From: Terriglobales bacterium
GTDB taxonomy: Bacteria > Acidobacteriota > Terriglobia > Terriglobales > Acidobacteriaceae
Reading direction: 5' to 3'
Assembly: GCA_050012915.1 (NCBI GenBank)
Contig: JBEKGG010000001.1
Coordinates: 1 to 56,802 of the forward strand
Length of the DNA stretch: 56,802 bases
How positions within the stretch are numbered: position 1 is the stretch's first letter; every line of letters begins with the position of its first letter. The translations under genes and the position numbers were made by a program. This document shows, piece by piece, positions 33,508 to 51,627 of the stretch. Under the pieces are notes generated by a model. It was not told the origin of the DNA. It did not search any database and saw nothing but the letters and a program-made list of their open reading frames with translations.

Positions 33508-35169
33508 TCAGAAGCGGAACTGCAACTCCTGCGTCAAGGCGAAGAAGTTCTGCGGCACTTGCCCTGTGATGCTGGGCTGGTGCAATTGATCGATGTTGAC
33601 GTTGAACTGGTACTTCACCCAATAATTCAGGTACCAGTTGATTCCGAACGTGACCTGGTCGGTGTGAAAGTTGTACTGCGGGACAAAGCCCGGAGTGTAA
33701 TAGCTCAAGAAGTTCGAGGCGGGTGCATTCGCCTGAATGCCGGTGTACCGAACCGTTGCTTCCCAAGCTCCCCAACCGCGTCCCGTACCACCGGGAGTAT
33801 CGGGCCCGAATAACGGGTGCTTGACACGAGGCGTGCCATTTTCGGGTTTTTTCTCGCCGGTCAGCAGGTAGGTTGTCCCAATATCCCACGCCTTGGCTCC
33901 GATTCCAGGTAGAGTCAGGAAGCCTAAGCCACCGGATTGCAAAGAGCCCACGCTGTCACGTTGATACTGTCCCTGCACGTATTCGCCGCGCAGCGCGAAC
34001 GCGGACTTGATGTAGGTGAATTCGCCCTCGTACAGTTCGATAGGGCCGTTGATTGGTAACTGAGGGAAAAACGAATAAGTGGCATCAGGGATTTGACCGT
34101 TGAAGCTCACGTCACCAGACAGTCCTCTGGAACGGGCGTGGCTGATCGATCCACCAACCGCAAACTGCCTGAGCCATTCGTTTTTCGTCTTTCGCCAAGG
34201 ATACAAGCGGAGTCTTCCGACAAACTCGGGCTCATTGACAACGTTTGCGGTAACGCCGCCCCTGCCGTTGAAAGCTCCCGCCCAATACTGTAAGACGCCG
34301 CCGTCAATGTCCCCGTGAATCGTCATGCCAGGGCAACGGTATGCAGTCACCGCACACGGGTAGAGCATCGCCTGCAAGCCGCGCTCAACAAAGTCGAGGT
34401 TAGTTGCACCAATACCGGTTTCCTGGGCGAATGGTACTTTGAATTGTCCTGCCTGGACTTGAAACTCGGGAATGATTCTGACGTTGAGATAAACGTCACG
34501 AACGATTGCGCCCGTAGTCGAGTTAGCGTCGGTCAACAGGGCAAAGTCGAAGTGCGATCCGTAGTTGCCCTGAAACCCGAAGCGAGCGCGGCGAACCAGG
34601 AACGTGTCAGCCGGCGCGCCATCACCCTTGTAAGCGCGGTAGTCGGTGTCCACGTAACCGTAGGGACTGATGCTGAACTGTCCGTCCGGGCTTCTAATGA
34701 AGAAATGCTCTCCGTTCCATCCTGCCGTGAGGGGAGCGTCTTTCTTGGGCACTGCTGCTGGCTCTGCTTGGTTGATGCCTCCGCTTTCGATCGCCGGTTC
34801 AGGCTGGACCAGAACTGTGTTCATCAGATGGACGCTGTCTGTGCTCCCGCTGCTGACCGGTTGAGGAGTGGCGACGGCGACGGGGATGGCGCCGGTTGAG
34901 TCGGTTGCCGCGGGTTTCACGCTGGCCGATGTTCCTGCCGCGGCAGTGGTCTTGCCATCAACCAATTGCTGGACCATCGCCTTTAATTCGTCGATGGTTT
35001 TGCGTTGCGCCTCAACCTCGCTGCGCAACTGGTTGACCTCTTCCTTGCTGGCGCTGCCGGAGGTCGCTGCGGCGGTTTTGCTCGCGGGTTCTGTGGCTTG
35101 AGCGTGGGCGAACGAACCCGGTGCCATGAAAACAACCAGGAGCACGAAAAGCGTTGTTAGCGAGCGCAT
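33508..35169 (-). CDS. Phosphate-selective porin O/P (OprO/OprP) family outer-membrane protein with an N-terminal coiled-coil
   Basis: FLVRRARFGFQGNYGSHFDFALLTD block and a C-terminal beta-barrel ending in F. I prefer the start MRSLTTLFVLLVVF at 35169 with GGAGAGG upstream. The N-terminal segment EEVNQLRSEVEAQRKTIDELKAMVQQL looks like a coiled coil. Confidence 0.75.
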   Translation of the reverse strand: MRSLTTLFVLLVVFMAPGSFAHAQATEPASKTAAATSGSASKEEVNQLRSEVEAQRKTIDELKAMVQQLVDGKTTAAAGTSASVKPAATDSTGAIPVAVATPQPVSSGSTDSVHLMNTVLVQPEPAIESGGINQAEPAAVPKKDAPLTAGWNGEHFFIRSPDGQFSISPYGYVDTDYRAYKGDGAPADTFLVRRARFGFQGNYGSHFDFALLTDANSTTGAIVRDVYLNVRIIPEFQVQAGQFKVPFAQETGIGATNLDFVERGLQAMLYPCAVTAYRCPGMTIHGDIDGGVLQYWAGAFNGRGGVTANVVNEPEFVGRLRLYPWRKTKNEWLRQFAVGGSISHARSRGLSGDVSFNGQIPDATYSFFPQLPINGPIELYEGEFTYIKSAFALRGEYVQGQYQRDSVGSLQSGGLGFLTLPGIGAKAWDIGTTYLLTGEKKPENGTPRVKHPLFGPDTPGGTGRGWGAWEATVRYTGIQANAPASNFLSYYTPGFVPQYNFHTDQVTFGINWYLNYWVKYQFNVNIDQLHQPSITGQVPQNFFALTQELQFRF

Positions 35170-35707
35170 GTTTTCCTCTCCGACCATGATTTGTCGACCG
35201 ATCGGCCTGGGCGCAGAGCGAGCGTGCAAGTGCTGAGCCTCACACGCAGACTGCTTCGAGGCCGCAAATCACTACACCGCCTATTCGAAAAATCGATAAC
35301 TTGTATGAAAAGCGGACCAATCCGCTGGCGCGCCTGTTTACCACAGATTTCTGCAAAGAGTCAAGTAAAGTTTTATTTCTGATTCGCTGGGCACGAGAGG
35401 CAATAAGGATTTTGGAGCGGATAAGAATTGGAGCAACAATAGACATAGTCAGTTTGCGTTTAATCCTTTGGCGGTACGATTCGTTTTTGACGAAGAAAAC
35501 AGCATCGTTGTGGTCGCGATCACACATGAATTTTTTTTAATCGCCAGCCGCCATAAGCAATTGACTCCGTGATTCATGTCTTGCAATGATGTCGGTTTGC
35601 TGAGGGGAATCTTAGAATAGAGATTCGTCGCAAGCCACTGAACCCTGCACGGCGATGTTGGCAAGTTAGGTTCCGGCCGCGGCCTGGCTGTAAACTTGGG
35701 GCGACGA

Positions 35708-35815: not shown

Positions 35816-37387
35816 ATGGCTTCGCGTAAGGAACACACCGGGTCGCAGCAAATGAATTACGCGCCGCCGGAATTGAATCCGCAAAAAGATCTTCCCAATG
35901 GATTCTTTGATTACCTCCTTCCACTTCACAAACAATTCACGCCCTGGCAAGAGAAGCTGATAGCAAGACGCGCTGAGGTATTGCAGCGATCGCATCGCGG
36001 AGAGCCGCCGAACTACTTGCCACCGTCAGAGGCCACCACGTCCGACTGGCGGATCGAGATTCCCGAGTGGTGCGCGGATCAACGAAACCAGATGACTGGA
36101 CCCGGCGACGATGGTGAGTTGACGGTCAAACTCCTGAACTCCGGATCGCCGGCCGTGATGATAGATATTGAAGATTCCACGGCAAACATCTGGCTGCACA
36201 TCATGCAGGCGATTGAGAATACGCTCGCCGCTTACAAATACGAACTCAGCTATAACGACAAGAAGCGGGGTAAAAGGGTCAGCGTTCAGCGCTCGAAGAC
36301 CGTGACCTGGGTACGGCCGCGTGGATTGCACGTCAGCCAGGGTGGAGTGATCAAGAACGAGATCACGTCGGCTTCGCTGTTCGATCTGGCGCTGATCTGG
36401 TATCAGATCGATCCCGCATCGCTGCCGCACAATTTCTGTGTCTATATCCCTAAAAGCGAATCTGCGGAAGAGGCATTCTGGTGGCGCGACCTTTTCCAGG
36501 CTTTCGCCAAACAGAAGAAACTTCCACCCGACTACATAAAATGCATGGCTCTGGTAGAGGCGCACCCGCTGGCTTATCAGATGGAAGAATTTCTCTTCAA
36601 TCTCCGTGAGCACTGCGTGGGTTTAAACCTGGGGCGCTGGGATTACATGGCCTCGCTGATCGATTTCATGTCCGAGGATCCCAACTGGATTTTGCCGGAC
36701 CGGAATACGATCCCGCACGATGTGGCATTCTTTCAGAATTTCCGCATGTTGATGCCGGAGATCTGCCACAAGCATGGCGCCCACGCGATTGGCGGAATGA
36801 CGGCGCTTTATCCCAGCCGCTCTGACGCGGAGTTGAACGAACGCGCGCTAAAGGTACTTGAGGAAGACAAGAAGAATGAAGCCAAATGCCTGATGGATGG
36901 CGCCTGGACTGGCCATCCTGACCAGAACCAGATCGCAGTAGCACAGTTTCCGTGCCCCAATCAGATTGCAAAACGGCCTGAGCACGCGAATCCGCACCCC
37001 GACTTGCGCCCGGTTCCAAAAGGCGTTGGCAAAACGACCCTTGCAGGAACGCGAGCTGCCGTGCGCACTGTCATTCGTTATCGAAACGGAGTGCTGAACG
37101 GGAAGGGCGCCAGCTTGCTTGATGGCTACATGGAGGATCTGGCGACCGATCGCATTTACCGGTTGATGATCGCGCAACGAGTAAGACACAAGGTCAGAGT
37201 TCCCGGCGACGACGGCAAACCGGTTGAGCACAGCACTGAATTAGTGACCCGCATTTTTGACGAGGAGCTGGCGAAAATTCAACGCGATTTGCCGGCGGAG
37301 ATTGACGCCAAGGCGGCTGAGACACTTCCGGAAGCGCGGCGCATCGCCGAGGCGATGATCGCGGAGGGGCACCACTCGCCGATTTAA
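35816..37387 (+). CDS. aceB: Malate synthase A
   Basis: About 523 aa, with GLNLGRWDYMASLI and DGAWTGHPDQ blocks corresponding to the malate synthase A active-site regions. Confidence 0.85.
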   Translation: MASRKEHTGSQQMNYAPPELNPQKDLPNGFFDYLLPLHKQFTPWQEKLIARRAEVLQRSHRGEPPNYLPPSEATTSDWRIEIPEWCADQRNQMTGPGDDGELTVKLLNSGSPAVMIDIEDSTANIWLHIMQAIENTLAAYKYELSYNDKKRGKRVSVQRSKTVTWVRPRGLHVSQGGVIKNEITSASLFDLALIWYQIDPASLPHNFCVYIPKSESAEEAFWWRDLFQAFAKQKKLPPDYIKCMALVEAHPLAYQMEEFLFNLREHCVGLNLGRWDYMASLIDFMSEDPNWILPDRNTIPHDVAFFQNFRMLMPEICHKHGAHAIGGMTALYPSRSDAELNERALKVLEEDKKNEAKCLMDGAWTGHPDQNQIAVAQFPCPNQIAKRPEHANPHPDLRPVPKGVGKTTLAGTRAAVRTVIRYRNGVLNGKGASLLDGYMEDLATDRIYRLMIAQRVRHKVRVPGDDGKPVEHSTELVTRIFDEELAKIQRDLPAEIDAKAAETLPEARRIAEAMIAEGHHSPI

Positions 37388-37575
37388 AGCGGTAAAGCGC
37401 TGGCATAAATGTGCTGATAAAAAACTCTGATCGAATAGATCAATAGAATCAGCTTGACGAAGAATCCCTGATCAGTGCCCACTATCATACTGCGTCGCAT
37501 GTCGAACCTTACCGTTCGGATGGGATTCTGAAGATTGCTTCTTCCACACTAATATTTGACTATTTTCGCTGAGAA

Positions 37576-38745
37576 ATGAGGGCTATGAGCGTCGTTGAAC
37601 AGCAGGCTGCCACAATTAACTCGCTACCTCCTTTGCAACCGCCTCGCCGATATTTGTTCGGACCCGGACCGAGTATGGTTCATCCGCGCGTCTATGAGGC
37701 GCTGGCAAAGCCGATCGTTGGACACCTCGATCCATATTTCATCCAGGTGATGGGAGACGTTCAGCAGTTGGTAAAAATGGCTTATGGCACCAGCAGCGGC
37801 GCCACGCTGGTGATTTCCGGCACCGGCAGCGCGGGCATGGAAGCTTCGATAGCAAACTTCGTAGCGCCCGAAACCAAGCTGGCGATTTTTGCCAATGGAT
37901 ATTTCTCCGATCGCCTCACGGAGATGGCAAAGCGACAAGGCGCGAATGTCGCGCGGTTTGAGAAACCCTGGGGAGCAACCTTCACTGACGATGAGGCGAC
38001 GGAATTTGTTCGTCGCGAAAAGCCCGAAGTTGTGGCCTATGTTCACGCCGAAACATCGACCGGAGCGTTGCAATCAGGCAAGGCGATTTGCGCCGCCGCT
38101 CACGATAGCGGCTCGCTCGTGATTGCAGACTGCGTGACCTCGCTCGGCGGCCTGCAAATAGACTTTGACGGCACGGGCATCGACGTCGCTTATAGCTGCA
38201 CCCAAAAAGGATTGAGCTGCCCGCCCGGCTTATCTCCGATGGCTATGTCGCGAAGGGCCATGGAATTCCTGAACAGCCGCACCACCCCGCCGCGCAGTTG
38301 GTACCTCGACCTCAAGCTGATTCACGATTATTCGACGGTCTCGCATCGCTACCACCACACCGCGCCGATTTCCATGTTTTACGCATTGCGCGAGGCGCTA
38401 CTGGTTATCGCGCAAGAGGGAATTGAGAACCGATGGGAGCGGCACCGACGTTGCCATCAGTCTTTCGTCAAGGGCATAGAAGCCATGGGATTGCGCATGC
38501 ACGTTCCCGAAGGCTTCCGCATTCCAACCTTGAACACAGTGCATGTTCCAGAAGGTATTGACGAGGCGAAAGTTCGAAAACGCCTGATAGAAGATGCAGG
38601 CATTGAGATCGCTGGCGGCTTCGGTCCGCTCGCAGGGAAAGTTTTCCGCATCGGCGTCATGGGTCCCTTGGCCACCGAGGAAAATGTACAGTTTTTCCTC
38701 AAAGAGTTTGGCAAAGCGCTCCAAGCGGAGGGCTACTCCATCTGA
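37576..38745 (+). CDS. Class V aminotransferase (serine/alanine-glyoxylate aminotransferase type)
   Basis: GPGPSMVHPRV, SGTGSAGMEA and SCTQKGLSCPPGLSP (PLP-lysine) motifs. An alternative start is the ATG at 37585, with GAGGG upstream. Confidence 0.8.
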   Translation: MRAMSVVEQQAATINSLPPLQPPRRYLFGPGPSMVHPRVYEALAKPIVGHLDPYFIQVMGDVQQLVKMAYGTSSGATLVISGTGSAGMEASIANFVAPETKLAIFANGYFSDRLTEMAKRQGANVARFEKPWGATFTDDEATEFVRREKPEVVAYVHAETSTGALQSGKAICAAAHDSGSLVIADCVTSLGGLQIDFDGTGIDVAYSCTQKGLSCPPGLSPMAMSRRAMEFLNSRTTPPRSWYLDLKLIHDYSTVSHRYHHTAPISMFYALREALLVIAQEGIENRWERHRRCHQSFVKGIEAMGLRMHVPEGFRIPTLNTVHVPEGIDEAKVRKRLIEDAGIEIAGGFGPLAGKVFRIGVMGPLATEENVQFFLKEFGKALQAEGYSI

Positions 38746-38861
38746 AGCCGGGTTGGGCGGAGGACGGCAAGCCTGAAGCCTGCAGCCGTATTCCTCTGGT
38801 TTCGGGAACAACGGACAAGATCGGCGCCTCATCCAAGGACTCGCGTTAAGGGCAATAACGA

Positions 38862-40370
38862 ATGACTCTCAAGTCAGTCCAGACACTTCTCGACGTTTTG
38901 CACTTTGCGGACGGTCGCGCGGCGGTTATTGTTCCAGAGCTTGGAGTCCCCATCACCTACGATTCGCTTCGCCAGCAAGTCTGGGCCATGGCCAACGCTT
39001 TGGCTTCCATCGGCATTCGTCGCGGCGATACGGTTGCGATCGCGCTGCCGAACGGATTGCCTGCTCTGGTGAGTTTTCTAGCTGCGTCTATCGCTGGAAC
39101 CGCGGCCCCGTTGAACCCGGCGTACCCGTATGAGGAGTTTCATTTTTTTCTCGGCGACACCGGCGCGCGTATTTTGCTTTGTCCGCCGGTAGGGGCGGAG
39201 TTTGTGCGCGCCGCGGCGGCCGACCGCAAGATCCCGGTATTTTCGGTCGAAATGAATGAGCAGGGAAATGTTCACATAGCGAATGCTCCGACTGGAGCCA
39301 CGGCAACCGAGCCCACGGCCGACGACATTGCCCTGATCCTGCACACCAGCGGCAGCACGGGCCGGCCCAAGCGTGTGCCCTTGCGGCATTTCAATCTCGC
39401 CGTATCGTCGGCGAATATCGCGAACACATACACTCTTTCGGAAGACGATGTTTCACTTTGCATCATGCCGCTGTTCCACATCCACGGATTGATTGGATCG
39501 GCCATGGCCACTCTGCTCTCCGGAGGAACCGTGGTGATTCCCAGCAAGTTCAATGCGCTTTCTTTTTGGCGTACGATTCGCGAACATCGCGTAACCTGGT
39601 ATTCGGGCGTGCCCACCATGCATCAGCTTCTGCTGGCGAGGACGCACGACAAACCGGTCGAAGCAGAATCCTTGCGTTTTATCCGCTCTTGCAGCGCGCC
39701 GCTATCGGCGCAACTTATTGGCAAGATCGAGGATTTGTTTGGCGTACCCTTCGTCGAAGCCTACGGAATGACCGAAGCTGCTCACCAGATGACCTCGAAT
39801 CCATTGCCTCCGCGACACCGCAAGGCCGGGTCTGTCGGCGTGAGTACGGGGCTGCGCATTAGCATCATGGACAAGGAGGGCAATCACCTCGCCACCAATC
39901 AGCGGGGAGAAGTTGCCATTCAGGGAGCGAACGTATTCCGCGGATACGAAAATAATCCTGAAGCCAACGCCCGTGCGTTTGTGAATGGATGGTTTCGTAC
40001 CGGTGACGAAGGATTCCTCGACGCAGACTGCTATTTGCATTTGACCGGTCGAATTAAGGACATCATCATTCGTGGGGGCGAGAACATTGCGCCGCATGAA
40101 GTCGACGAGATTTTGCTTAGGCATCCCGCGGTCGCGGCGGTAGTCACCTTCGGTTGCGCGCATCCGACGCTGGGCGAAGAGGTGGCCGCGGCTGTGGTTC
40201 TGCACGAACCCAACGGATCGAGCGAATCGGCGCTGATCGAGCATTGCCGCGAATCGCTGGCGGAATATAAATGTCCAACCAAGATTTATCTGGTGGAAAG
40301 CATTCCCACCACTGCGACGGGAAAAATTCGCCGTCGCGCCGTCGCCTCCGCCCTCGCGGATCGGCCATGA
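38862..40370 (+). CDS. ANL-superfamily acyl-CoA synthetase, closest by eye to AAE3/Pcs60-type oxalate-CoA ligases
   Basis: The AMP-binding motif LHTSGSTGRPKRV is present. Several blocks match my recollection of Arabidopsis AAE3: LRFIRSCSAPL, EAYGMTEAAHQMTSNPLP, GYENNPEAN, GWFRTGDEG and YLHLTGRIKDIIIRGGENI. Superfamily membership is certain. The substrate assignment is inference. Confidence 0.6.
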   Translation: MTLKSVQTLLDVLHFADGRAAVIVPELGVPITYDSLRQQVWAMANALASIGIRRGDTVAIALPNGLPALVSFLAASIAGTAAPLNPAYPYEEFHFFLGDTGARILLCPPVGAEFVRAAAADRKIPVFSVEMNEQGNVHIANAPTGATATEPTADDIALILHTSGSTGRPKRVPLRHFNLAVSSANIANTYTLSEDDVSLCIMPLFHIHGLIGSAMATLLSGGTVVIPSKFNALSFWRTIREHRVTWYSGVPTMHQLLLARTHDKPVEAESLRFIRSCSAPLSAQLIGKIEDLFGVPFVEAYGMTEAAHQMTSNPLPPRHRKAGSVGVSTGLRISIMDKEGNHLATNQRGEVAIQGANVFRGYENNPEANARAFVNGWFRTGDEGFLDADCYLHLTGRIKDIIIRGGENIAPHEVDEILLRHPAVAAVVTFGCAHPTLGEEVAAAVVLHEPNGSSESALIEHCRESLAEYKCPTKIYLVESIPTTATGKIRRRAVASALADRP

Positions 40371-41350
40371 GATTTCTGATCGCGGGAGCCGGAGCGATCG
40401 GAGCTTATATCGGCGCTCGCATGGCCCAGGCCGGATTCGATGTCACCCTCTTTGCCCGCGGCCCACACCTTCGCGCCATGCAGGAACACGGTGTGCAGGT
40501 GAAGAGCGGCGAGGGAGATTTCATCGCCCGCCCCAAAATCGCAAGCGCCCTCGCGGATGTGGGCCCGGTCGACGTTGTTTTTCTTGGCGTAAAAGCGCAC
40601 AGCCTGCCGCAACTCGCTCCGCAATTGCATCCCGTACTGGGGCCCGACACTTCAGTTGTCAGCACGCAGAATGGAATTCCGTGGTGGTACTTCCAGGGTT
40701 TCGGCGGCGAATGGGAAGGATTGCGTCTCGAGCGCGTCGATCCGGGAGGCGTTATATCGTCGGCCATCGAAGCGCCCCGGGTAATTGGATCGATAGTGTA
40801 CTTTGCCACCGAAATTACCGCGCCCGGGGTGGTTCAGCACATCGAGGGGAATCGCATTACTCTTGGTGAGCCCGACGGCACGCGGTCTCATCGTTCCCGC
40901 CAAATTGCAGAAGCGCTGATCGCCGCTGGTTTACGCTGCCCGGTCACGGCTCGAATCCGGCACGACATTTTGGTCAAGATTCTGGGCAACGCCTCCTTGA
41001 ATCCTGTGAGCGCGCTGACGCGAGCTACGGTTGCTGAGATGCTTCGCGATCCGGGCGTTCGCGTCGTGATTCGAAACATCATGGAGGAAGTGGAAGCGGT
41101 CTCCGGTAACTTGGGGATGGAGTTGCCTGTTTCGATCGATCAACGAATTGCGGGCGCGGAAAAAGTTGGCCAGCACAAAACCTCCATGCTGCAGGATCTA
41201 GAGGCCGGCCGCTCGATGGAGTTGGAAGCGCTGGTTGGCGCGGTCGTGGAGCTCGGCGAACGCATGGGTCTCCCAATGCCCATCACTCGAACCGTGTACA
41301 GTTGCGCAAAGCTATTAGCGGAGACTGAGGCTAAGCAACTGGCAAAATAA
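40367..41350 (+). CDS. 2-dehydropantoate 2-reductase (ApbA/PanE) family oxidoreductase, candidate oxalyl-CoA reductase
   Basis: MRFLIAGAGAIGAYIG Rossmann start and a TSMLQDLEAGRSMELEALVGAVV C-terminal KPR-family block. ATGA start/stop overlap with the CoA ligase gene. The track ORF's N-terminal extension from 40271 is rejected. Confidence 0.75.
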   Translation: MRFLIAGAGAIGAYIGARMAQAGFDVTLFARGPHLRAMQEHGVQVKSGEGDFIARPKIASALADVGPVDVVFLGVKAHSLPQLAPQLHPVLGPDTSVVSTQNGIPWWYFQGFGGEWEGLRLERVDPGGVISSAIEAPRVIGSIVYFATEITAPGVVQHIEGNRITLGEPDGTRSHRSRQIAEALIAAGLRCPVTARIRHDILVKILGNASLNPVSALTRATVAEMLRDPGVRVVIRNIMEEVEAVSGNLGMELPVSIDQRIAGAEKVGQHKTSMLQDLEAGRSMELEALVGAVVELGERMGLPMPITRTVYSCAKLLAETEAKQLAK

Positions 41351-41419
41351 GCATAGCTTTCTCCACAGCGGCAAAAGAACGTGGATCGAGTTTCCCCATC
41401 TCCCAAGAAAAATAAAGGG

Positions 41420-41450
41420 TTGACAATAGATAGGACACCGGGCGTATACT
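41420..41450 (+). promoter_or_regulatory. Sigma-70-like promoter (TTGACA-N19-TATACT) upstream of the GntR-family gene
   Basis: Perfect -35 hexamer at 41420-41425 and a near-consensus -10 at 41445-41450. The 19 nt spacer is longer than optimal. Confidence 0.3.
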
Positions 41451-41462
41451 TCGTGCGGTGGC

Positions 41463-41481
41463 TGGTCCACTTATCGGACCA
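41463..41481. promoter_or_regulatory. Inverted repeat TGGTCC-N7-GGACCA, candidate GntR/FadR-type operator
   Basis: Perfect 6+6 inverted repeat between the putative -10 and the ATG (41489) of the FCD-GntR regulator. It fits the generic GntR-family operator logic (GT...AC palindromes). Confidence 0.3.
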
Positions 41482-41488
41482 CTTGAAC

Positions 41489-42199
41489 ATGGCGCTTGCC
41501 AGGACCAAACCGGACTTCGAAGTAATCCGAAGAAACAAGGTCTATGAGGAAGTCGCTCAGCAGATCGAGCGTCTTATTCTGAAAAAATTGCGCCCGGGCG
41601 ACAAACTACCGTCGGAACGGGAACTGGCTGAAATGTTAAAGGTGAGCCGCAGCTCCATCCGGGACGCGATCCGCGGGCTGGAGTTGAGGGGCCTGGTTGA
41701 GCCGCGCCAGGGAGCCGGGACAATCGTTCGCGAGCCGTCATCTGAGCCGTTGGTGAATCCTTTTGCCAACGCGCTGAAGCGCCGGCAGGAGATGGTCAGC
41801 GAGCTTTTGGATTTTCGCAAAATGCTTGAGCCGCCGTTAGCAGCGCGTGCGGCCACGCATGCTTCCGCCGATGAAATTTCTGAGATGGAAGAAATTCTGC
41901 GACGTCAAGAGGAGAAGCAGGCTCAAGGCGAGGCCGCTGTCGCTGAGGATGCAGAATTCCATTACAACATTGCTCTGGCTTCGGGGAATGGCGTGGTGCT
42001 GAAAGTGCTCGACATCATCATGGACCTGCTGCGAGAAACGCGAGAGCGTTCGCTGCAGTTGGATGGTCGGCCACAAAAATCGCTGGCCGGACACCGGCGC
42101 ATCCTGGCCGCAATCAAACGCCACGATGGCGAAGCGGCAAAGGCGGCGATGCGACGCCACATTGAGGATGTAGAAGAGATCGTACTTGACAGGTTTTAA
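41489..42199 (+). CDS. GntR-family transcriptional regulator, FadR/FCD subfamily (GlcC/LldR/PdhR-like)
   Basis: N-terminal winged HTH (KLPSERELAEMLKVSRSSIRDAIRGLELRGLVE) and a C-terminal FCD-type helical domain (EFHYNIALASGN...HRRILAAIKRHD). The ATG at 41489 is preferred over the track start at 41381. Confidence 0.85.
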   Translation: MALARTKPDFEVIRRNKVYEEVAQQIERLILKKLRPGDKLPSERELAEMLKVSRSSIRDAIRGLELRGLVEPRQGAGTIVREPSSEPLVNPFANALKRRQEMVSELLDFRKMLEPPLAARAATHASADEISEMEEILRRQEEKQAQGEAAVAEDAEFHYNIALASGNGVVLKVLDIIMDLLRETRERSLQLDGRPQKSLAGHRRILAAIKRHDGEAAKAAMRRHIEDVEEIVLDRF

Positions 42200-42340: not shown

Positions 42341-44659
42341 TTGACTAAGCTGGCGAATGACACGACCCGTGTGGCCGTCGCGCCTCGCGATGCAGGTGAC
42401 GCGGATCAATCCAAGGCAAAACTGTTCGATGGAATCCAGGGCCAGGAACAGGTCGCAAATCGCGCCGTGTCAGAAATCTCTCCATTACCTCTCGGTCTAA
42501 CTCTTACACTTCGTGTTGCTGAGGCGCGCGTCGAGGACGTTGGCCACGCGATTGCGCGACTGGCGCCAGCCGACTTGCAGCGTATTGGTGTTCGGGCCGG
42601 CGACGTGATCAAGATCAGCGGCGGTGCCGTTGGCGTTGCACGCGCTGAGCTTTCGGATGATGGATACGAAGGCATGATCCAGATCGACGGGACATGCCGC
42701 AGCAATTGTAGTGCGGGCCTGCAAGAGCAAGTGACGGTAGCCAGAATTGATAGCGAGCAAGCGGTCGCCGTTCGCCTCTCACCGCTGTGGGTGGGGGCTG
42801 CGCCAGCGACCATCGCGCCTGATCGAATGCTGGAGGATCTGATCGGCGTTCCGGTGATCGCGGGTTGCGTGGTGCGTGTGCCGACCTTTGCCAAGGCGGT
42901 GAACTTCCAGGTTGTGCGGACGATTCCTTCGGGACCGGTTGTGATCGGGAAACGTACCGACATCCGGGTTGTGGAAGGCGAGCAGACGGCAGCCCGGGCT
43001 CCGGCGGTTTCCTACGAAGACATCGGCGGCCTGGAGCGCGAAGTCGCGCGAGTGCGTGAAATGGTCGAACTGCCGCTGAAGTATTCGCGCATTTTCGAGC
43101 GGCTGGGAATTTTGGCGCCCAAAGGCGTGCTCTTGTACGGCCCGCCGGGCACGGGTAAGACTCTGCTTGCCCGCGCGGTCGCGGCGGAGAGCCGCGTGCA
43201 CTTTATTCACCTCAATGGCCCCGAGATCATGCGGAAGTTCTACGGCGAAAGCGAAGCCAAGCTCCGCGAAGTTTTCGAAGAAGCGGCACGCCACGCGCCG
43301 GCGATCTTGTTCATCGATGAAATCGACGCTGTTGCCCCCAAGCGCACTGAGGTGGTCGGTGAAGTGGAGAAGCGGGTCGTGGCACAGCTTCTCAGCTTAA
43401 TGGATGGTTTCGTCGCGCGCGGCCAAGTGATCGTCATCGGCGCGACCAACATCCCGGAAGTTCTCGATCCTGCGCTGCGCCGCCCCGGGCGTTTTGATCG
43501 CGAAATTGAAATCGGCGTTCCCAACACGCAAGCGCGGTTGCAGATTCTCAGAATTCACACGCGAGCCATGCCGCTGGCGGCGGACGTCGATCTTCAGGAA
43601 ATCGCCGATCATTCGCACGGCTTTGTTGGCGCCGATCTCGAGGCGCTGGGACAGGAAGTCGGAATGATCTCGCTTCGCCGTTTCCTCTCGATGGTCCCGC
43701 TCGATGCTGACGGCGCTTCATCTCCCGACCTGGGTTCGCTGCAAGTTACGCGTGATGACTTTCTCGCAGGGTTGAAGGAGGTCGAGCCCAGCGCCACTCG
43801 CGAGTTCTTTATCGAGAAAAGCGCGTCGACGTTTGCATCGCTCGGAGGTCTCGATGAAGTAAAGCGGTTGCTCCACGCTGTAATTGAGCACTCGCATATG
43901 CGCGACGAGATTTATGAGCAGGTTGGGTTGGCCCCGCCGCGAGGCATTCTTCTAACCGGGCCGTCGGGCACCGGGAAGACTGCGATGGCCCGCGCACTAT
44001 CGGGAGAAATGCAGCTGCCGCTCATCGCCATTGAAGGCCCGCAACTGTACTCGAAGTGGTTGGGCGAATCTGAGCGAGCGCTGCGAGAAGTTTTCAAGAA
44101 GGCACGACGTGCCGCGCCTTGCATCCTGTTCTTCGACACTATTGATGCGATTGCGCCCAAGTTCGGCGCTGATCAGTTCGGCAGCGATGTGTATCAGAGA
44201 ATTCTCAGCCAGCTCTTGCGTGAGATCGACAATTTGCGCGACGTTAAAGGTGTAATTCTGCTCGCGGCCACCAATCGTCCTGAACGGATCGAGCCGGCGC
44301 TGTTGCGGAGCGGGCGCTTCGACTATATACTCCCGTTCGCTAAACCCGATGCTGCCGAGCGCGAAGCGATTATGCGGCTTTGCTGCCGGCGGGTACCCAT
44401 GGCAGCCGATATGGATTTCGAGCAGTTCGCTGGTCGGACGGAAGGATTTACCGGTGCCGATATTGAGAGCCTGTGCAAGAAAGCCACGTTGTTGGCGATT
44501 GCGAAATATCAGGATGGCTCTCGCGTCGCGCCTTTCGTTGTCCTGGCAAACGATTTTCTGTCGGTTCTTCAGTCGGATCGTGGAAGTCCCGAGCAATCGA
44601 AAACAGCGAACGTGAACAACCACGCCGAGGGTACCTGCCCCGACGCGACTACGAAGTGA
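42341..44659 (+). CDS. Cdc48/VAT/p97-like double-AAA+ ATPase with N-terminal double-psi-barrel substrate-recognition domain
   Basis: The N-domain (LRVAEARVEDVGHAIARLAPADLQRIGVRAGDVIKISG) is Cdc48-N-like. D1 has GPPGTGKT, ILFIDEID and pore loop KFYGESE. D2 has GPSGTGKT, ILFFDTID and pore loop KWLGESE. The TTG start at 42341 is uncertain. Confidence 0.85.
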   Translation: MTKLANDTTRVAVAPRDAGDADQSKAKLFDGIQGQEQVANRAVSEISPLPLGLTLTLRVAEARVEDVGHAIARLAPADLQRIGVRAGDVIKISGGAVGVARAELSDDGYEGMIQIDGTCRSNCSAGLQEQVTVARIDSEQAVAVRLSPLWVGAAPATIAPDRMLEDLIGVPVIAGCVVRVPTFAKAVNFQVVRTIPSGPVVIGKRTDIRVVEGEQTAARAPAVSYEDIGGLEREVARVREMVELPLKYSRIFERLGILAPKGVLLYGPPGTGKTLLARAVAAESRVHFIHLNGPEIMRKFYGESEAKLREVFEEAARHAPAILFIDEIDAVAPKRTEVVGEVEKRVVAQLLSLMDGFVARGQVIVIGATNIPEVLDPALRRPGRFDREIEIGVPNTQARLQILRIHTRAMPLAADVDLQEIADHSHGFVGADLEALGQEVGMISLRRFLSMVPLDADGASSPDLGSLQVTRDDFLAGLKEVEPSATREFFIEKSASTFASLGGLDEVKRLLHAVIEHSHMRDEIYEQVGLAPPRGILLTGPSGTGKTAMARALSGEMQLPLIAIEGPQLYSKWLGESERALREVFKKARRAAPCILFFDTIDAIAPKFGADQFGSDVYQRILSQLLREIDNLRDVKGVILLAATNRPERIEPALLRSGRFDYILPFAKPDAAEREAIMRLCCRRVPMAADMDFEQFAGRTEGFTGADIESLCKKATLLAIAKYQDGSRVAPFVVLANDFLSVLQSDRGSPEQSKTANVNNHAEGTCPDATTK

Positions 44660-44675
44660 TGAACGAGGTTTAATC

Positions 44676-45323
44676 ATGAGCTACAGCGAACTTACGGTTT
44701 GGACGCGCGGCATCATCATGGATAAAGAAGGCCGCGATATCGTCAACTCCATTTCCGCTTCCGCCCGCATCGAAGGCAAGTACGCGCAGGCGATGGAGAA
44801 TTACGTCGACAATCCCGATCGCACCAACGCTCCCACGAGAAAATACTGCCGGGTTAGCGATAGCGTGCTCGAAAATGAACTCACATACGAAAACGAACAT
44901 CCCAACATTGTCGTTCTGGTTGAAGGCACGATGGTTAAGGGTTGGGATTACATGCGGGGCATGCCTCCCGGCGGCACGCTAGTGATCAACACGCATTACA
45001 CGCCGGATTACATGATTCGTTTTGTTCCGGGTGCCGAGCGCCTGGCGCAACTGGTGTGCGTTGACGCCGCGAAACTGGCCGACCATAAGTGGCTTTACTA
45101 TCGGCTGGGCGAACTCGGACTCGATCGTCTTTCCACCGAGGGCGCTGCCGAGCGAAACAAATCCATCGCGCCCGACATCGCCGCTCCGTTGATTGCCGCG
45201 GTGGTCAAAACCACGAGCATCGTAAAAATGGAAACGATCGAGCCGATGATTGCCAACAAACACGCATTTCACGCGGCGCTCAACGAATTGCACATCATGT
45301 CACTGAATCCAGTGGCCGTATAA
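44676..45323 (+). CDS. 2-oxoacid:acceptor oxidoreductase gamma-subunit homologue (divergent)
   Basis: Colinear by eye with PorG-type gamma subunits (EGKYAQA, RVSDS..., PNIVVLVEG, GGTLVINT, VCVDAAKLA, IAAPLIAAVVKTTSIV). The usual N-terminal GRGGQG-type glycine motif is replaced by TRGIIMDKEGRD. The gene starts 16 nt after the AAA+ gene stop. Confidence 0.6.
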   Translation: MSYSELTVWTRGIIMDKEGRDIVNSISASARIEGKYAQAMENYVDNPDRTNAPTRKYCRVSDSVLENELTYENEHPNIVVLVEGTMVKGWDYMRGMPPGGTLVINTHYTPDYMIRFVPGAERLAQLVCVDAAKLADHKWLYYRLGELGLDRLSTEGAAERNKSIAPDIAAPLIAAVVKTTSIVKMETIEPMIANKHAFHAALNELHIMSLNPVAV

Positions 45324-45337
45324 GGGAAGGATTTTTC

Positions 45338-47170
45338 ATGTCGACCAAAGGCACGCACATACCCGAATGGCTTACGGTTCCGTTTGCCGGGATCACTCCC
45401 GCGCCCTCGCAGGAAAAGGGGCAGGACCTGTTTCCCACTGGCAATTGGCGCTCAATCCGGCCGGTGTATCGAGACAAATTGCCACCCTGCAACAACGCTT
45501 GCGGAACCAATGAAAAGATTCAGGGGTATCTCGATCTGGTGAAGCGCGGCAAGTATCTGGACGCTTACGCGCTCATCAAGGAAGACATGCCGTTCCCGTC
45601 GGTCACTGGCCGCGTGTGTTATCACCCGTGCGAACAAGCCTGCAATCGCGGAAAGTACGATGAAGCGATCTCCATTCGCGCCGTCGAACGCTTTCTCGGC
45701 GATCTGGGACAGGCGTTGAAACACGACGTGGTAAAAGCTGGAGCGCCGAACGGAAAGAAAGTCGCCGTCGTCGGTTCTGGTCCAGCCGGGCACAGCGCGG
45801 CTTACCAACTTGCGCGCCTCGGCTATCAAGTAACGATTTTTGAGAAATCACCCAAGGCGGGCGGTTTGAATCGTGGGGGTATCCCGGACTGGGTGCTTCC
45901 CGCTGACGTGCTTGATCGCGAGATCGAGCGCCTGGTTGAACTCGGGATCACAATTAAGACCAATGTCGAAGTCGGCAAGGACGTCACTTGGGACGAACTC
46001 AAAAAGAACTACGATGCTTGCGTGCTGGCCGTGGGTCTCACCGAGCCGAACAGCGTGCGCGCCGAAGGAGAGAACAAAGACGGCGTGCTCTACGGTCTTC
46101 CGTTCCTTCGCGACATCGGCATGGGATCATCGAAAGTGAAGCTGGGAGCCCGTGTGGCCGTAATCGGCGGCGGAAACACTGCCATCGATTGCGCCCGTGA
46201 AGCCCTGCGCCAAGGCGCGGTGGAAGTAACCATGATCACCGTGGAAGCCAATCCGCAAGAGATGCCCGCCTCCCCGGAAGATCTGCACGACATGCTCGAA
46301 GAAGGCGTGGAACTGTTCCACGGGCGCGCTGTAACCGCGGTGCTTGGCAACGGCAAAATTGAGGCTCTGCAATTGCATCCGGCGCGTTTTTCTGGCGCCA
46401 TCAATGCCTCACCGATTACTGTCGATCGAGAAGCCTCGCCCGAACGTTTCGAAGTCGACAACGTGATCATCGCAGTTGGACAGCACGCCGCGCTCAAGTG
46501 GTTGCCGGACGAATTCAAGACTGAGCGCGGCACCATCAAGATTGACCGCTTCGGACGCCTGGGTGAGACGAACTTTTTTGCCGCCGGCGACATCGTGCAA
46601 CTCGGTTCCGGTCAGCCGCTGATGGTGGTGAATGCCGTTGGCGACGGCAAGCGTGTGGCTTTCAATCTGGACAAAGTGGTGCGTGGCGAACCGTTGCAGT
46701 CACGGACGATTCCCATCGACGTCATTGTCGATTTGGATCGCATGAACATGACATATTTCCCGCACTTCCCCCGCGTGCAGCAAACTTTGCTGGCGCCGAC
46801 AAGCCGGCGCAAAACGCAGGACGAAGTGATTCAATCGCTCTCGGAAGAGCAGGCCGTTGAAGAAGCTAGCCGCTGTTTTAGTTGCGGTACCTGCAACGCT
46901 TGCGACAACTGTTATCTCGTCTGTCCTGAGCCGTGTATCGCGCGGCCGGAACGTTCGAACGGTCTTTACAAAATTCTGGTCGATTACTGCAAAGGTTGCC
47001 GCGTCTGCATTGAGGAATGTCCGACGGGCTGCCTCGAAGGTGTGCCGGAACTCGACTTCGATACCGGCGTGGTGCGAATGGATACTGCGTTCGCCATCTC
47101 GCCCGGGCTGCATGGGCGGCAAGCGGCGGAGTTGAGGAACCTCGCGGAGCGTCCGGCGAAGAACATTTAA
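45338..47170 (+). CDS. Fusion protein: OFOR delta-subunit (2x[4Fe-4S] ferredoxin) interrupted by a GltD/SudA-like NAD(P)H-FAD-FeS oxidoreductase module
   Basis: - Start: ATG at 45338 with GGGAAGGA upstream.
- N-terminus: TGNWRSIRPVYRDK resembles the TGxWR..P motif of PorD.
- Middle: GltD-like Cys cluster region (GRVCYHPCEQACNRG) and dinucleotide folds (KKVAVVGSGPAGHSAAYQLARLGYQVTIFEK and RVAVIGGGNTAIDCA).
- C-terminus: CFSCGTCNACDNCYLVCPEP and DYCKGCRVCIEECPTGC, typical of PorD. Confidence 0.75.
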   Translation: MSTKGTHIPEWLTVPFAGITPAPSQEKGQDLFPTGNWRSIRPVYRDKLPPCNNACGTNEKIQGYLDLVKRGKYLDAYALIKEDMPFPSVTGRVCYHPCEQACNRGKYDEAISIRAVERFLGDLGQALKHDVVKAGAPNGKKVAVVGSGPAGHSAAYQLARLGYQVTIFEKSPKAGGLNRGGIPDWVLPADVLDREIERLVELGITIKTNVEVGKDVTWDELKKNYDACVLAVGLTEPNSVRAEGENKDGVLYGLPFLRDIGMGSSKVKLGARVAVIGGGNTAIDCAREALRQGAVEVTMITVEANPQEMPASPEDLHDMLEEGVELFHGRAVTAVLGNGKIEALQLHPARFSGAINASPITVDREASPERFEVDNVIIAVGQHAALKWLPDEFKTERGTIKIDRFGRLGETNFFAAGDIVQLGSGQPLMVVNAVGDGKRVAFNLDKVVRGEPLQSRTIPIDVIVDLDRMNMTYFPHFPRVQQTLLAPTSRRKTQDEVIQSLSEEQAVEEASRCFSCGTCNACDNCYLVCPEPCIARPERSNGLYKILVDYCKGCRVCIEECPTGCLEGVPELDFDTGVVRMDTAFAISPGLHGRQAAELRNLAERPAKNI

Positions 47171-47182
47171 ATCGGAGTGAAT

Positions 47183-48391
47183 ATGGCAACAGCTACTGCA
47201 GTGAAAAAGAGAACAGTTCGGATCAATGGTTGCGTGGCTTCGGCGCAGGCCGCCAAGTATGCCGATGTCGATGTGATTACGGCCTACCCCATCCGGCCTT
47301 ACACCGCGACCATGATGGCGCTGGCGCAAATGGTGGCCAACGGAGAACTTGATGCCGAATATATCGTGGCCGACAGCGAGCACTCGCAGTTAAGCATCGC
47401 GCACGGAGCTTCGTCGAGTGGCGCGCGTGTTTTCACCGGCAGTTCCGGCGTCGGAGTGCAATTCGCATATGAGCTTTACTCGCCAATTTCCGGCAGTCGC
47501 ATGCCGGTGCAAATGATGATCGCCGACCGCACTCTCGATCCTCCCGGCGATTTCGGTTCCGAGCACACCGACGCGCTTTCGACGCGCGACATGGGATGGC
47601 TCATGGGCTGGGCCTGCGACGCGCAGGAAGCGTTCGACAATCATCTGATGGGTTATCGAATCGGCGAAGACCCGCGCGTGCTTTTGCCGCAGATGATCTG
47701 CCAGGATGGCTTTTTTGTTTCGCACATCACCAGCGACGTCGAATTACCAGATTCCGGCCAGGTAAAGGAATTCCTGCCTCCGTACAAGCATCCGTATCCG
47801 CTCGATCCGCGGCACCCGGTGTCGCATGGTCCACAGATCATGCCGGAGCAGGGCCCGCCGCTTCAGCTAGAGCGGGCGCGTGCCATGGAAGGCTCGGTGG
47901 ATGTCATTGAGCAGGTTCACGAGGAGTTCGCGAGAATCTTCGGACGGCGATACGATCCCTGGGTCGAAGAGTTTATGACCGATGACGCCGAAGTTGTTTT
48001 CTTTATGCAGGGCGGTCACGCGGTGACTGCACGCTTCGCCATTCAGCACATGCGCGAAAAAGGCCTGAAGGTTGGGCTCGTACGGTTGCGAACTATCCGT
48101 CCGTATCCGACCGATCGGGTGAACGAAGTTCTAAGTAAATTTAAAGTGGTCGGCGTCATTGAAACCAACATGGGACTCGGCAGTGTGAGCAGCGGGGGCG
48201 TTTTGTACGCCGAGGTTTGTGCGGCACTCTACGAAAATCAAAAGCGCCCGTTAGTGGTTTCGTTCATGGCTGGAATGGGTGGCGAGGCCATCGTGCTGAA
48301 AGAATTTTACTGGATGACCGAGAAGATGATGAATGCGCAGAAGCGCGGGAAAATCGAAAAGCGCACGCATTGGGTCGGATTCGAAGAGTAA
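47183..48391 (+). CDS. 2-oxoacid:acceptor oxidoreductase alpha subunit
   Basis: The NGCVASAQAAKYADVDVITAYPIRPYT...SEHSQLSIAHGASSSGARVFTGSSGVGVQF pattern matches PorA/VorA/KorA domain I. The C-terminal domain II is similar. About 402 aa. Confidence 0.85.
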   Translation: MATATAVKKRTVRINGCVASAQAAKYADVDVITAYPIRPYTATMMALAQMVANGELDAEYIVADSEHSQLSIAHGASSSGARVFTGSSGVGVQFAYELYSPISGSRMPVQMMIADRTLDPPGDFGSEHTDALSTRDMGWLMGWACDAQEAFDNHLMGYRIGEDPRVLLPQMICQDGFFVSHITSDVELPDSGQVKEFLPPYKHPYPLDPRHPVSHGPQIMPEQGPPLQLERARAMEGSVDVIEQVHEEFARIFGRRYDPWVEEFMTDDAEVVFFMQGGHAVTARFAIQHMREKGLKVGLVRLRTIRPYPTDRVNEVLSKFKVVGVIETNMGLGSVSSGGVLYAEVCAALYENQKRPLVVSFMAGMGGEAIVLKEFYWMTEKMMNAQKRGKIEKRTHWVGFEE

Positions 48392-48433
48392 GTATGATGC
48401 GGGGCCTTTGCACCCTGCCATTGGGAGAAAACG

Positions 48434-49498
48434 ATGTCAGCAATTGAAGTGGAACGTCAGATACTGCCAATTCTCGGGAGCCCAAATCAGGGCGCGCGTT
48501 TTTACAACCCTGACTTACCGTCGTCCGAACCGTTCGTCCCCGGCCATCGCACTTGCGCCGGTTGCGGGCCTTCCATCCAATACCGGATGACGAGCAAGGC
48601 TTCCGGCGACAATACGATCCTGGTCGGACCGACAGGCTGTATGTATGTCGCGAACAGTTCGTATTTGTGCACGCCCTACAATGTGCCTTGGGCGCACACC
48701 CAGATTGGCAGCGCGGGCAGCTTCACCGCTGGCGTGGCAGCGGCCTATGAAGCCATGATCCGCAAGGGCAAATGGAAGGGTCAGTTTCCAAATATTATTT
48801 GCGAAGCAGGCGACGGCAGCGCTTCGGACATCGGCCTTGCCTCGATTTCAGGAGCACTTTACCGCAATCACGACTGCCTGATTATCTGCTACGACAACGA
48901 GCAGTATGCGAACACCGGCATTCAGGCCTCATCGCGCACGCCGTACGGCGGCATGACGACATTCTCCCCTCCCGGCCCCGAAGTTCCAGAAGGGAAGAAG
49001 CTGTTTCCCAAAGATCTCGCCCGCATGATGGCGGCGGGCCATCCCCACTGTTACGTGGCGACCGCAAGCGTGGGCTACCCGATCGACTTGATGAACAAAG
49101 TGCGCAAGGGACTCAACCACAAGGGCGCTGCTTATCTCATGGTCTACACGCCTTGCCAGAAGGGCTTCGTGTACGAGACGCCGCGCTCGATTGATCTGGG
49201 CCGGTTGGTCGTCGAATGCGGGCTCTATCCGATCTGGGAGTGGAATCCTGAGAAGCGCGCATACGATTACAGCTTCCGCCCGCAGAATATGCGGCCGGTG
49301 TCGGAGTATTTGAAGTTGCAAGGACGCTTCGGACATCTCCACGCTGAGCACATCGCCAAGTTGCAGCAGTTCGCGAACGAGCAGTGGAAGATGATGGGCG
49401 TCCAGCTGCCGGAGGCCTTGATTCATGCGGCAGATGCGAAGAACCTTACCAACATGGCGTCGGCGGCAGAAGCCGAGGCGGTGGCGCAAACTTTATGA
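48434..49498 (+). CDS. 2-oxoacid:acceptor oxidoreductase beta subunit (thiamine-diphosphate and [4Fe-4S] binding)
   Basis: GHRTCAGCG N-terminal cluster motif and the GDGSASDIGL...YDNEQYANTGIQASSRTP ThDP-binding motif. Confidence 0.85.
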   Translation: MSAIEVERQILPILGSPNQGARFYNPDLPSSEPFVPGHRTCAGCGPSIQYRMTSKASGDNTILVGPTGCMYVANSSYLCTPYNVPWAHTQIGSAGSFTAGVAAAYEAMIRKGKWKGQFPNIICEAGDGSASDIGLASISGALYRNHDCLIICYDNEQYANTGIQASSRTPYGGMTTFSPPGPEVPEGKKLFPKDLARMMAAGHPHCYVATASVGYPIDLMNKVRKGLNHKGAAYLMVYTPCQKGFVYETPRSIDLGRLVVECGLYPIWEWNPEKRAYDYSFRPQNMRPVSEYLKLQGRFGHLHAEHIAKLQQFANEQWKMMGVQLPEALIHAADAKNLTNMASAAEAEAVAQTL

Positions 49499-51616: not shown

Positions 51617-51627
51617 ACTGGACCAGT
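51617..51627. promoter_or_regulatory. Palindrome ACTGGACCAGT upstream of the OFA-family transporter gene
   Basis: Perfect 5+1+5 palindrome. Its complement contains CTGGTCCA, the same 8-mer found in the inverted repeat upstream of the GntR-family gene (41462-41469). Confidence 0.2.

Follow-up and report, generated by a model that had tools for sequence, protein, structure and literature searches.

The window analysed here is a stretch of 56,802 nucleotides (contig JBEKGG010000001.1, assembly GCA_050012915.1) from an uncultured Terriglobales acidobacterium, in which a gene for an AMP-binding ligase is directly followed by a gene for an ApbA/PanE-family reductase. It is quite probable, judging from sequence comparisons, that this pair of genes (38862-41350) is the acidobacterial counterpart of oxs-panE2 of Methylorubrum extorquens and would feed glyoxylate to the products of the neighbouring genes, a malate synthase and a class-V aminotransferase. 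This reading is based on sequence homology, on the residues that determine specificity, on clade membership and on the conserved linkage of the genes. From these we infer the substrates, the cofactor, the direction of flux, co-transcription, regulation by the adjoining GntR-family protein and growth on oxalate. The window belongs to a metagenome-assembled genome (MAG, labelled G000 hereafter) of 4.69 Mb in 450 contigs, 84.8% complete with 5.9% contamination.

When compared with all PDB chains, the ligase has as its three closest relatives all three oxalyl-CoA synthetases with solved structures, namely LsOCS from Lathyrus (6qjz; 1.7e-124, 419 bits), Arabidopsis AAE3 (5ie0; 2.4e-121, 409 bits) and yeast Pcs60 (8aff; 9e-112, 377 bits), all scored by phmmer. 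The next families are feruloyl-CoA synthetase (5.5e-77, 262 bits) and malonyl-CoA synthetase (1.5e-66, 228 bits). The lead of the oxalyl-CoA synthetases is thus about 150 bits over any other ligase and about 190 bits over malonyl-CoA synthetases. Together with its clade, this ranking bears out the predicted kinship of the ligase with AAE3, Pcs60 and LsOCS, and not with fatty-acid or aromatic-acid ligases.

The oxalate pocket of Arabidopsis AAE3 (AtAAE3) consists of V215-H216, C288-S289, A313-M314, H319 and K500, and S289 and H319 are stated to be conserved in oxalyl-CoA synthetases only (PMC8905533). In the alignment, H206-I207-H208, C277-S278, G302-M303, H308 and K488 of the window ligase correspond to AtAAE3 H214-V215-H216, C288-S289, A313-M314, H319 and K500, respectively. 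Both oxalate-specificity residues are therefore present (S278 for Ser289 and H308 for His319), as is the catalytic lysine (K488 for Lys500). Two pocket positions are substituted, Val215 by Ile207 and Ala313 by Gly302.

In the ligase tree, the window ligase shares one clade with the M. extorquens ligase P0018, to which it is 47% identical and which is encoded beside panE2, and four ANL paralogues from its own genome stand apart (SH-aLRT, Shimodaira-Hasegawa-like approximate likelihood ratio test, 97). For the plant and yeast AAE3 sequences, the affiliation is that given by the ranking of PDB scores. P0018 is taken as OXS on the basis of its adjacency to panE2 and of the panE2-adjacent ligase being the single AAE3-type ligase of a Methylorubrum genome, that of the closely related M. 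rhodesianum (440 bits, next 249). The best PDB matches of P0018 itself are AAE3 and LsOCS. No close paralogue of the window ligase was found in its genome, where the next ANL enzyme is 31% identical, and its best NCBIfam model is an uncharacterised “FadD7 family” (451 bits, below the cut-off of 650). Overall, the window ligase is most likely an oxalate-CoA ligase that would activate oxalate with ATP. The OXS of M. extorquens is an AMP-forming oxalyl-CoA synthetase (kcat 1.3 s-1, KM for oxalate 9 uM; PMC7154664); the KM of AAE3 for oxalate is about 150 uM (PMC8905533).

It appears highly improbable that the ligase activates malonate, glycolate, glyoxylate or another small acid and that the reductase then forms the corresponding aldehyde. 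If the acid were malonate, the pair would yield malonate semialdehyde, from which the aminotransferase would form beta-alanine. Among bacterial ligases with a solved structure, malonyl-CoA synthetases come next in similarity (228 bits; 323 bits with NF005702), and an identity of 47% does not fix substrate specificity. However, the Ser and His specific to oxalate are kept, and the gap of about 190 bits separates the ligase from malonyl-CoA synthetases. In addition, genes for an OxlT-family transporter and for the alpha subunit of an oxalate-oxidoreductase (OOR)-like enzyme, a subunit that exceeds its equivalog cut-off, lie in the neighbourhood, and malate synthase and the AGT-type enzyme use glyoxylate, not malonate semialdehyde.

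The assignment of the second gene of the pair relies on PanE2 of M. extorquens (P0003), to which the window reductase is 49% identical over 323 residues. M. extorquens was absent among the matches in the genome-contig search; PanE2 was reached from homologues in a plasmid collection, through Methylobacteriaceae loci, to M. extorquens proteins via members of 90% clusters. The published panE2 cloning primers (PMC8411744, Supplementary Information (SI) Table S2) match both ends of a Methylorubrum gene (L096:6001-7008) in the 90% cluster of P0003, and this cluster is therefore identified as PanE2.

In a tree of 45 sequences, the ligase-linked reductases, the Methylorubrum PanE2 orthologues and a Cupriavidus protein form one group (SH-aLRT 96), and E. 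coli PanE and three paralogues from the window genome are found beyond a branch of length 1.9; this tree comes from a quick search and has long outgroup branches. The comparison with PanE2 and with bona fide PanE, suggested in the original prediction, thus places the window reductase with M. extorquens PanE2 and the ApbA2-like protein of Cupriavidus, apart from PanE. The group also carries an insertion after the QNG motif (IPWWYF...LE.VDPGG), a signature that was defined here from the alignment and is not a published criterion. It is present in the window reductase, in P0003, in the Cupriavidus ApbA2-like protein, in PDB 3ghy and in homologues from Gemmatimonadota, Chloroflexota and Dormibacterota, and missing from E. 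coli PanE and from the paralogues of the window genome (L163-L165). Of all solved structures, 3ghy is the closest to the window reductase (1.6e-62; next 8e-33).

Three other genes of the genome fit the PanE model TIGR00745 with 266, 228 and 223 bits (one on contig C163, two on C69), versus 198 bits in two pieces for the window reductase. The two pieces are separated at 40679-40756, where the insertion falls. The best PanE-equivalog matches of the genome are thus other genes, whose products, like E. coli PanE, share 25-30% identity with the window reductase. These scores bear on the view that the enzyme is an ordinary ketopantoate reductase (KPR) or 2-oxo-acid reductase, with a role in glyoxylate, hydroxypyruvate or pantothenate metabolism and with an uninformative position next to the ligase. 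In its favour, the protein passes NF005089, an NCBIfam subfamily model named “2-dehydropantoate 2-reductase” (416 bits, cut-off 223), and the KPR catalytic residues (E. coli K72, N98, K176, N180, N184, E210, S244 and E256) are all kept, as they are across the whole PanE2 group. Databases label the whole clade 2-dehydropantoate 2-reductase, and the family includes promiscuous 2-oxo-acid reductases, according to an excerpt of bioRxiv 2024.01.05.573888. On the other hand, the three paralogues fit the PanE model better, the placement in the PanE2/ApbA2 clade is far from E. coli PanE, the clade insertion is present, and pairing with an AAE3-type ligase is kept across phyla in both gene orders. Overall, a KPR role seems very unlikely, and the window reductase is most likely an NAD(P)H-dependent oxalyl-CoA reductase of the PanE2 type, as its clade membership suggests. 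PanE2 reduces oxalyl-CoA with NADPH in vitro (PMC8411744 SI), in a reaction that is reversible in vitro (PMC9485241), and deletion of apbA2 in C. necator leads to slower growth on oxalate (bioRxiv 2020.05.08.083683).

Regarding public names, proteins of the PanE2 clade, including the characterised M. extorquens protein and 3GHY, are called “2-dehydropantoate 2-reductase” or “ketopantoate reductase”, and those of the OXS clade “acyl-CoA ligase”. NCBIfam holds no equivalog model for either the PanE2 or the OXS clade.

Linkage between the two genes was analysed in 161 loci, 80 of them retrieved with the window ligase and 81 with a Methylobacterium PanE2 homologue. The first set covers Terriglobia, Vicinamibacteria, Blastocatellia, Bryobacterales-type Acidobacteriota, Chloroflexota, Dormibacterota and Proteobacteria MAGs; the reductase gene is directly downstream of the ligase gene in 74 of the 80 loci. 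The second set covers Alpha-, Beta- and Gammaproteobacteria, Gemmatimonadota and others, with a ligase gene nearby in about 65 of the 81 loci, mostly directly downstream. Taken together, about 140 of the 161 loci, from more than eight phyla, have the two genes side by side, in either order. Each gene order has its own main clade in the ligase tree and in the reductase tree, which mirror each other, and this suggests that the pair is inherited as a unit. The predicted overlap of the ligase stop codon with the reductase start codon (ATGA) is present in the window and may reflect translational coupling. Among 76 related loci, with start codons chosen automatically, 38 show an NTGA overlap of 4 nt, and the two genes are no more than 30 nt apart in a further 18.

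The commonest neighbour of the pair is an OxlT-family transporter gene, found in 16/29 alphaproteobacterial, 13/13 Gemmatimonadota and 6/6 Vicinamibacteria loci. Such a gene stands beside the pair in Alpha-, Beta- and Gammaproteobacteria, Gemmatimonadota, Vicinamibacteria and Blastocatellia; in the window, it is located about 10 kb downstream. Malate synthase genes are directly upstream of the ligase gene in 15 of 37 Terriglobia loci. In a Vicinamibacterales MAG, the stop codon of a canonical malate synthase A (MSA; 818 bits) gene overlaps the ligase start by 4 nt, and two Dehalococcoidia loci have divergent MSA-like genes directly upstream of the ligase gene. The AGT-type aminotransferase gene overlaps the ligase stop codon in several Gemmatimonadota, where the homologues show 41-44% identity, and precedes the ligase gene in 22 of 37 Terriglobia loci. 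Hence, malate synthase (in three lineages, with non-orthologous enzymes) and the AGT-type enzyme (in two lineages) appear to have been recruited beside the pair repeatedly, the pattern expected if the product of the pair is glyoxylate. Searches of the 161 loci with E. coli queries gave a single Gcl-like match, in a gammaproteobacterial locus.

In the window itself, the malate synthase A expected upstream of the pair agrees only in part with its prediction. The gene is there, E. coli MSA is the top PDB match of its product (3cuz, 2e-67), and AceB residues R166, E250, D278 and D447 are kept as R167, E248, D276 and D441; we take these, after verification of the positions in AceB, to be the catalytic Arg, the Mg-binding Glu and Asp, and the catalytic Asp. 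However, the protein is divergent: it is 32% identical to E. coli AceB and scores 314 bits with TIGR01344, below the equivalog cut-off of 594, although the TIM-barrel and C-terminal Pfam domains of malate synthase pass. The neighbouring aminotransferase was rightly related to glyoxylate, since its best solved relative is an alanine-glyoxylate aminotransferase (1vjo, 5e-107), followed by PucG (4e-76) and human AGT (3e-73). It reaches no NCBIfam equivalog cut-off. We propose that this enzyme is of the alanine- or serine-glyoxylate type and would convert glyoxylate to glycine.

No match to Frc was found in G000, and the best Oxc score is 147 bits, versus a cut-off of 739. Neither enzyme occurs in any of the 10 ligase-bearing relatives, which are 99-100% complete (E <= 1e-80). 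These results uphold the view that the ligase would be used rather than frc. Within the order, 120 other genomes were covered, and 10 of them, from 6 of 33 genera, encode the ligase. All 10 also have an OOR-alpha-like gene, and 5 of the 10 exceed the OOR cut-off. In the window, the OOR alpha subunit scores 589 bits with NF045791 (cut-off 500), the beta subunit scores 446 bits, and delta-like pieces are present. No Gcl above cut-off was found in G000, nor any match to Hyi, GlxR, GlxK, GlcB (malate synthase G) or glycolate dehydrogenase, absences that fall short of proof in an 85%-complete MAG. G000 also encodes glycine decarboxylase and a MOFRL glycerate kinase, which would make it genetically possible for glycine to reach glycerate by way of serine.

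From these elements, the following pathway can be proposed. Oxalate would probably enter through the OxlT-family transporter. The ligase would convert oxalate, ATP and CoA to oxalyl-CoA, AMP and PPi, as its homology and pocket residues suggest, and the PanE2-type reductase would use NAD(P)H to release glyoxylate and CoA. Judging from the neighbouring genes, glyoxylate would then be condensed with acetyl-CoA to malate by the malate synthase or converted to glycine by the AGT-type aminotransferase. Glycine may give C3 compounds via glycine cleavage and SHMT, hydroxypyruvate and glycerate kinase. As the search of G000 gave no Frc/Oxc route, energy and reductant would probably come from the OOR-like enzyme, oxidising a second share of oxalate to CO2. 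The predicted course from oxalate through oxalyl-CoA and glyoxylate to malate or glycine is thus supported by sequence, residues and linkage.

The pair could instead serve mainly for the detoxification or balancing of oxalate and glyoxylate, either by removing oxalate that enters the cell in acidic peat or with PanE2 working in reverse from glyoxylate to oxalyl-CoA, with malate synthase and AGT as housekeeping neighbours. Reversibility of PanE2 in vitro (PMC9485241) is compatible with such a role, the plant and yeast AAE3/Pcs60 enzymes act in oxalate detoxification according to excerpts of the literature, the malate synthase is the only one of a genome that has isocitrate lyase, and the module is patchy in the order (10/120 genomes). 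However, without Oxc, reduction is the only known outlet for oxalyl-CoA. The module also shares its locus with an uptake transporter and an oxalate-oxidising enzyme, and recruitment of malate synthase and AGT recurs in separate lineages. AMP-forming ligases are not known to run backwards in vivo. We therefore regard a mainly detoxifying role as improbable to a high degree and retain the assimilation of oxalate through glyoxylate.

Several observations weigh against this assimilatory reading. The spacers upstream of the pair are wide, with 188 nt between the malate synthase and aminotransferase genes and 116 nt between the aminotransferase and ligase genes, and malate synthase and AGT are missing from many related loci. 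The window malate synthase is the sole PF01274 match in G000, and an isocitrate lyase is encoded on another contig; therefore it is not necessarily dedicated to oxalate and may serve the ordinary glyoxylate shunt. The identity of 47-49% to characterised enzymes leaves scope for an altered substrate range. A scan for promoters and terminators gave nothing above shuffled expectation. A shared GntR operator was also considered and rejected: the perfect palindrome ACTGGACCAGT at 51617-51627, ahead of the OxlT-family gene, does not recur in front of the malate synthase, aminotransferase and ligase genes (9 matches versus 7.9 expected by chance). Finally, contigs from RNA libraries bridge no gene junction and may be DNA carry-over. 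These short contigs, from metatranscriptomes of peat, permafrost and soil (four runs from four studies), match all five genes with 0-3 differences at a depth of 2-8; they were not counted as proof of expression or co-transcription.

The combination of ligase and reductase is not new. It was held in the original prediction to be at best poorly described in bacteria. This goes too far, since M. extorquens has an AAE3-type oxalyl-CoA synthetase (Oxs) and PanE2, encoded by adjacent genes, and both are characterised (PMC7154664, PMC8411744 and PMC9485241, which all cite Schneider 2012). The pair is a described bacterial route and its core biochemistry is known. In M. extorquens and in the window, the same two enzyme families stand side by side, with specificity residues and reductase insertion common to both, and in strain PA1 panE2 and the ligase carry consecutive accessions. 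An OxlT-family transporter is also encoded nearby in Methylobacterium. In contrast, the order in Methylobacterium and Methylorubrum is OxlT-FAH-panE2-oxs, whereas the ligase comes first in the window and overlaps the reductase, and only the window pair clusters with malate synthase and AGT. A record from M. bullatum has both Oxc and Frc; the window genome and its relatives have neither. A 2012 study in J Bacteriol (194:3144) by Schneider and co-workers is said to describe an oxs/panE2 double mutant of M. extorquens and a variant of the serine cycle, with Oxc/Frc reportedly the main oxalate route of this organism. In the published M. extorquens route, glyoxylate is said to be converted to glycine by a class-V aminotransferase.

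The eukaryotic enzymes AAE3, LsOCS and Pcs60 (PDB 5IE0-5IE3, 6QJZ, 8AFF) are the closest solved structures, with Cys-Ser, Met, His319 and Lys500 identical. However, their oxalyl-CoA goes to Oxc-type decarboxylation (detoxification) or to beta-ODAP and is not reduced; they have no operon partner, and Pcs60 is peroxisomal. The CoA-acylating glyoxylate dehydrogenase/oxalyl-CoA reductase ApbA2 of C. necator (bioRxiv 10.1101/2020.05.08.083683) belongs to the same clade as the window reductase. The homologue from C. metallidurans shares 44-45% identity with the window reductase and 52% with P0003, and the latter figure agrees with the published 51% for PanE2 versus C. necator ApbA2 (bioRxiv 2020.05.08.083683); an FCD-GntR gene follows there too. 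In Cupriavidus, however, the reductase gene lies 4-6 kb from frc (C. metallidurans) and near a gene for a thiamine diphosphate (ThDP) enzyme, with no adjacent AAE3-type ligase, and oxalate is activated by CoA transfer. PDB 3GHY shares the PWW[YF]F...DP insertion of the window reductase; it is a structural-genomics entry titled “ketopantoate reductase protein”, with no oxalyl-CoA function in the title. Finally, a synthetic oxalate pathway in yeast combines FAT2/Pcs60 with M. extorquens panE2 (PMC12686821, PMC10127448). It likewise leads from oxalate through oxalyl-CoA to glyoxylate, and on into glycine and serine or glycolate, but was engineered from one yeast gene and one bacterial gene, whereas the window holds what would be the core of a natural operon.

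Five of the genes in Table 1, from malate synthase to regulator, had been predicted, and all five were recovered on the plus strand, with one correction: the start of the regulator gene is more likely ATG 41489 than GTG 41381. The FCD-GntR assignment of this downstream gene holds, as both its domains were recognised. Ahead of it lie a promoter-like TTGACA-N19-TATACT and an inverted repeat TGGTCC-N7-GGACCA (41420-41481), and a GntR homologue follows the ligase-reductase pair in most Terriglobia loci.

Table 1. Genes and sequence features of the window (positions are those of the whole stretch)
Feature	Position	Strand	Basis
Porin_O_P family (anion-selective porin) gene	33508-35229	-	divergent from malate synthase gene
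Malate synthase A-like gene	35816-37387	+	PF01274, 7e-53
AGT-type class-V aminotransferase gene	37576-38745	+	PF00266
AMP-binding gene, predicted oxalate-CoA ligase (OXS/AAE3/Pcs60 type)	38862-40370	+	PDB matches, pocket residues, clade
ATGA overlap of ligase stop (TGA) and reductase start (ATG)	40367-40370	+	read directly in the sequence
ApbA/PanE-family (PanE2-type) reductase gene	40367-41350	+	NF005089, 416 bits (cut-off 223)
Reductase clade insertion, residues 104-128 (IPWWYF...VDPGG)	40676-40750	+	alignment
FCD-domain GntR-family regulator gene	41489-42199	+	PF07729 and PF00392
Cdc48-type ATPase and OOR-like 2-oxoacid oxidoreductase with GltD-like NAD(P) module	42341-49498	+	OOR models
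OxlT-family (oxalate/formate antiporter family) MFS transporter gene	51782-53128	+	TIGR04259, 481 bits (cut-off 335)

Further observations were made around the pair. Within the ligase tree, a subclade (SH-aLRT 100) has no PanE2-type reductase in the fetched DNA (L070, from Binatia; L077 and L078, from Myxococcota MAGs). One Myxococcota and two Dehalococcoidia loci have an Frc-like CoA-transferase instead, which hints at other fates of oxalyl-CoA. In 22 of 29 alphaproteobacterial loci, a gene of the fumarylacetoacetate-hydrolase (FAH) family lies between the OxlT-family gene and panE2 (L081:8125-8901); members of this family include oxaloacetate decarboxylases and acylpyruvate hydrolases. Some relatives have a second 2-oxoacid:acceptor oxidoreductase beside the pair (L013, L021, L041 and L065; also G084:C4:538461-539633, G071:C7:110490-111665 and G115:C5:895733-896899). 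Its alpha subunit shares 42-45% identity with that of the window OOR and, at about 375 bits, falls short of the cut-off of the OOR model. This enzyme comes with an OxlT-family gene and replaces or adds to the OOR-like enzyme.

Homologues of the Porin_O_P gene occur within 23 of the 80 ligase-centred loci, mainly in Terriglobia, plus two other Acidobacteriota. The porin could provide an outer-membrane route for oxalate, or could be part of the adjoining PstS phosphate genes. DNA nearly identical to positions 35816-42199 (82-90% of sampled words) was found in at least 14 metagenome runs from peat, soil and bog, belonging to about 13 studies from 2016-2025, one run possibly being the source sample. 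These matches show that the population, or close strains of it, is widespread in peatlands.

The window module is a further case of a known, routinely mis-annotated route and stands out chiefly by the lack of frc and oxc, the standard oxalate genes. Its distinctive features are the four-gene array with malate synthase and AGT and the lineage-wide absence of frc and oxc, so that the ATP-dependent ligase would be the only entry to oxalyl-CoA. A broader view, for which we would give slightly less than an even chance, is that Terriglobia of peat and soil run a complete oxalotrophy free of frc and oxc. The AAE3-type ligase would be the sole activator, PanE2 would deliver glyoxylate to the co-clustered malate synthase and AGT, and the NAD(P)-linked OOR would provide NAD(P)H. 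If this is true, the oxalate-to-glyoxylate route, which engineers have built artificially (PMC12686821), has a natural operon of its own, and the annotation rules for the PanE subfamily and the ligase subfamily need to change. Surveys of microbial oxalate turnover use frc, oxc, oxdC and oxlT as markers (PMC10192776, PMC13409138), and this lifestyle would be invisible to surveys of environmental oxalate turnover based on frc, oxc and oxdC. Oxalate is a major exudate of plants and fungi, and abundant peat Acidobacteriota would then be unrecognised consumers of it.

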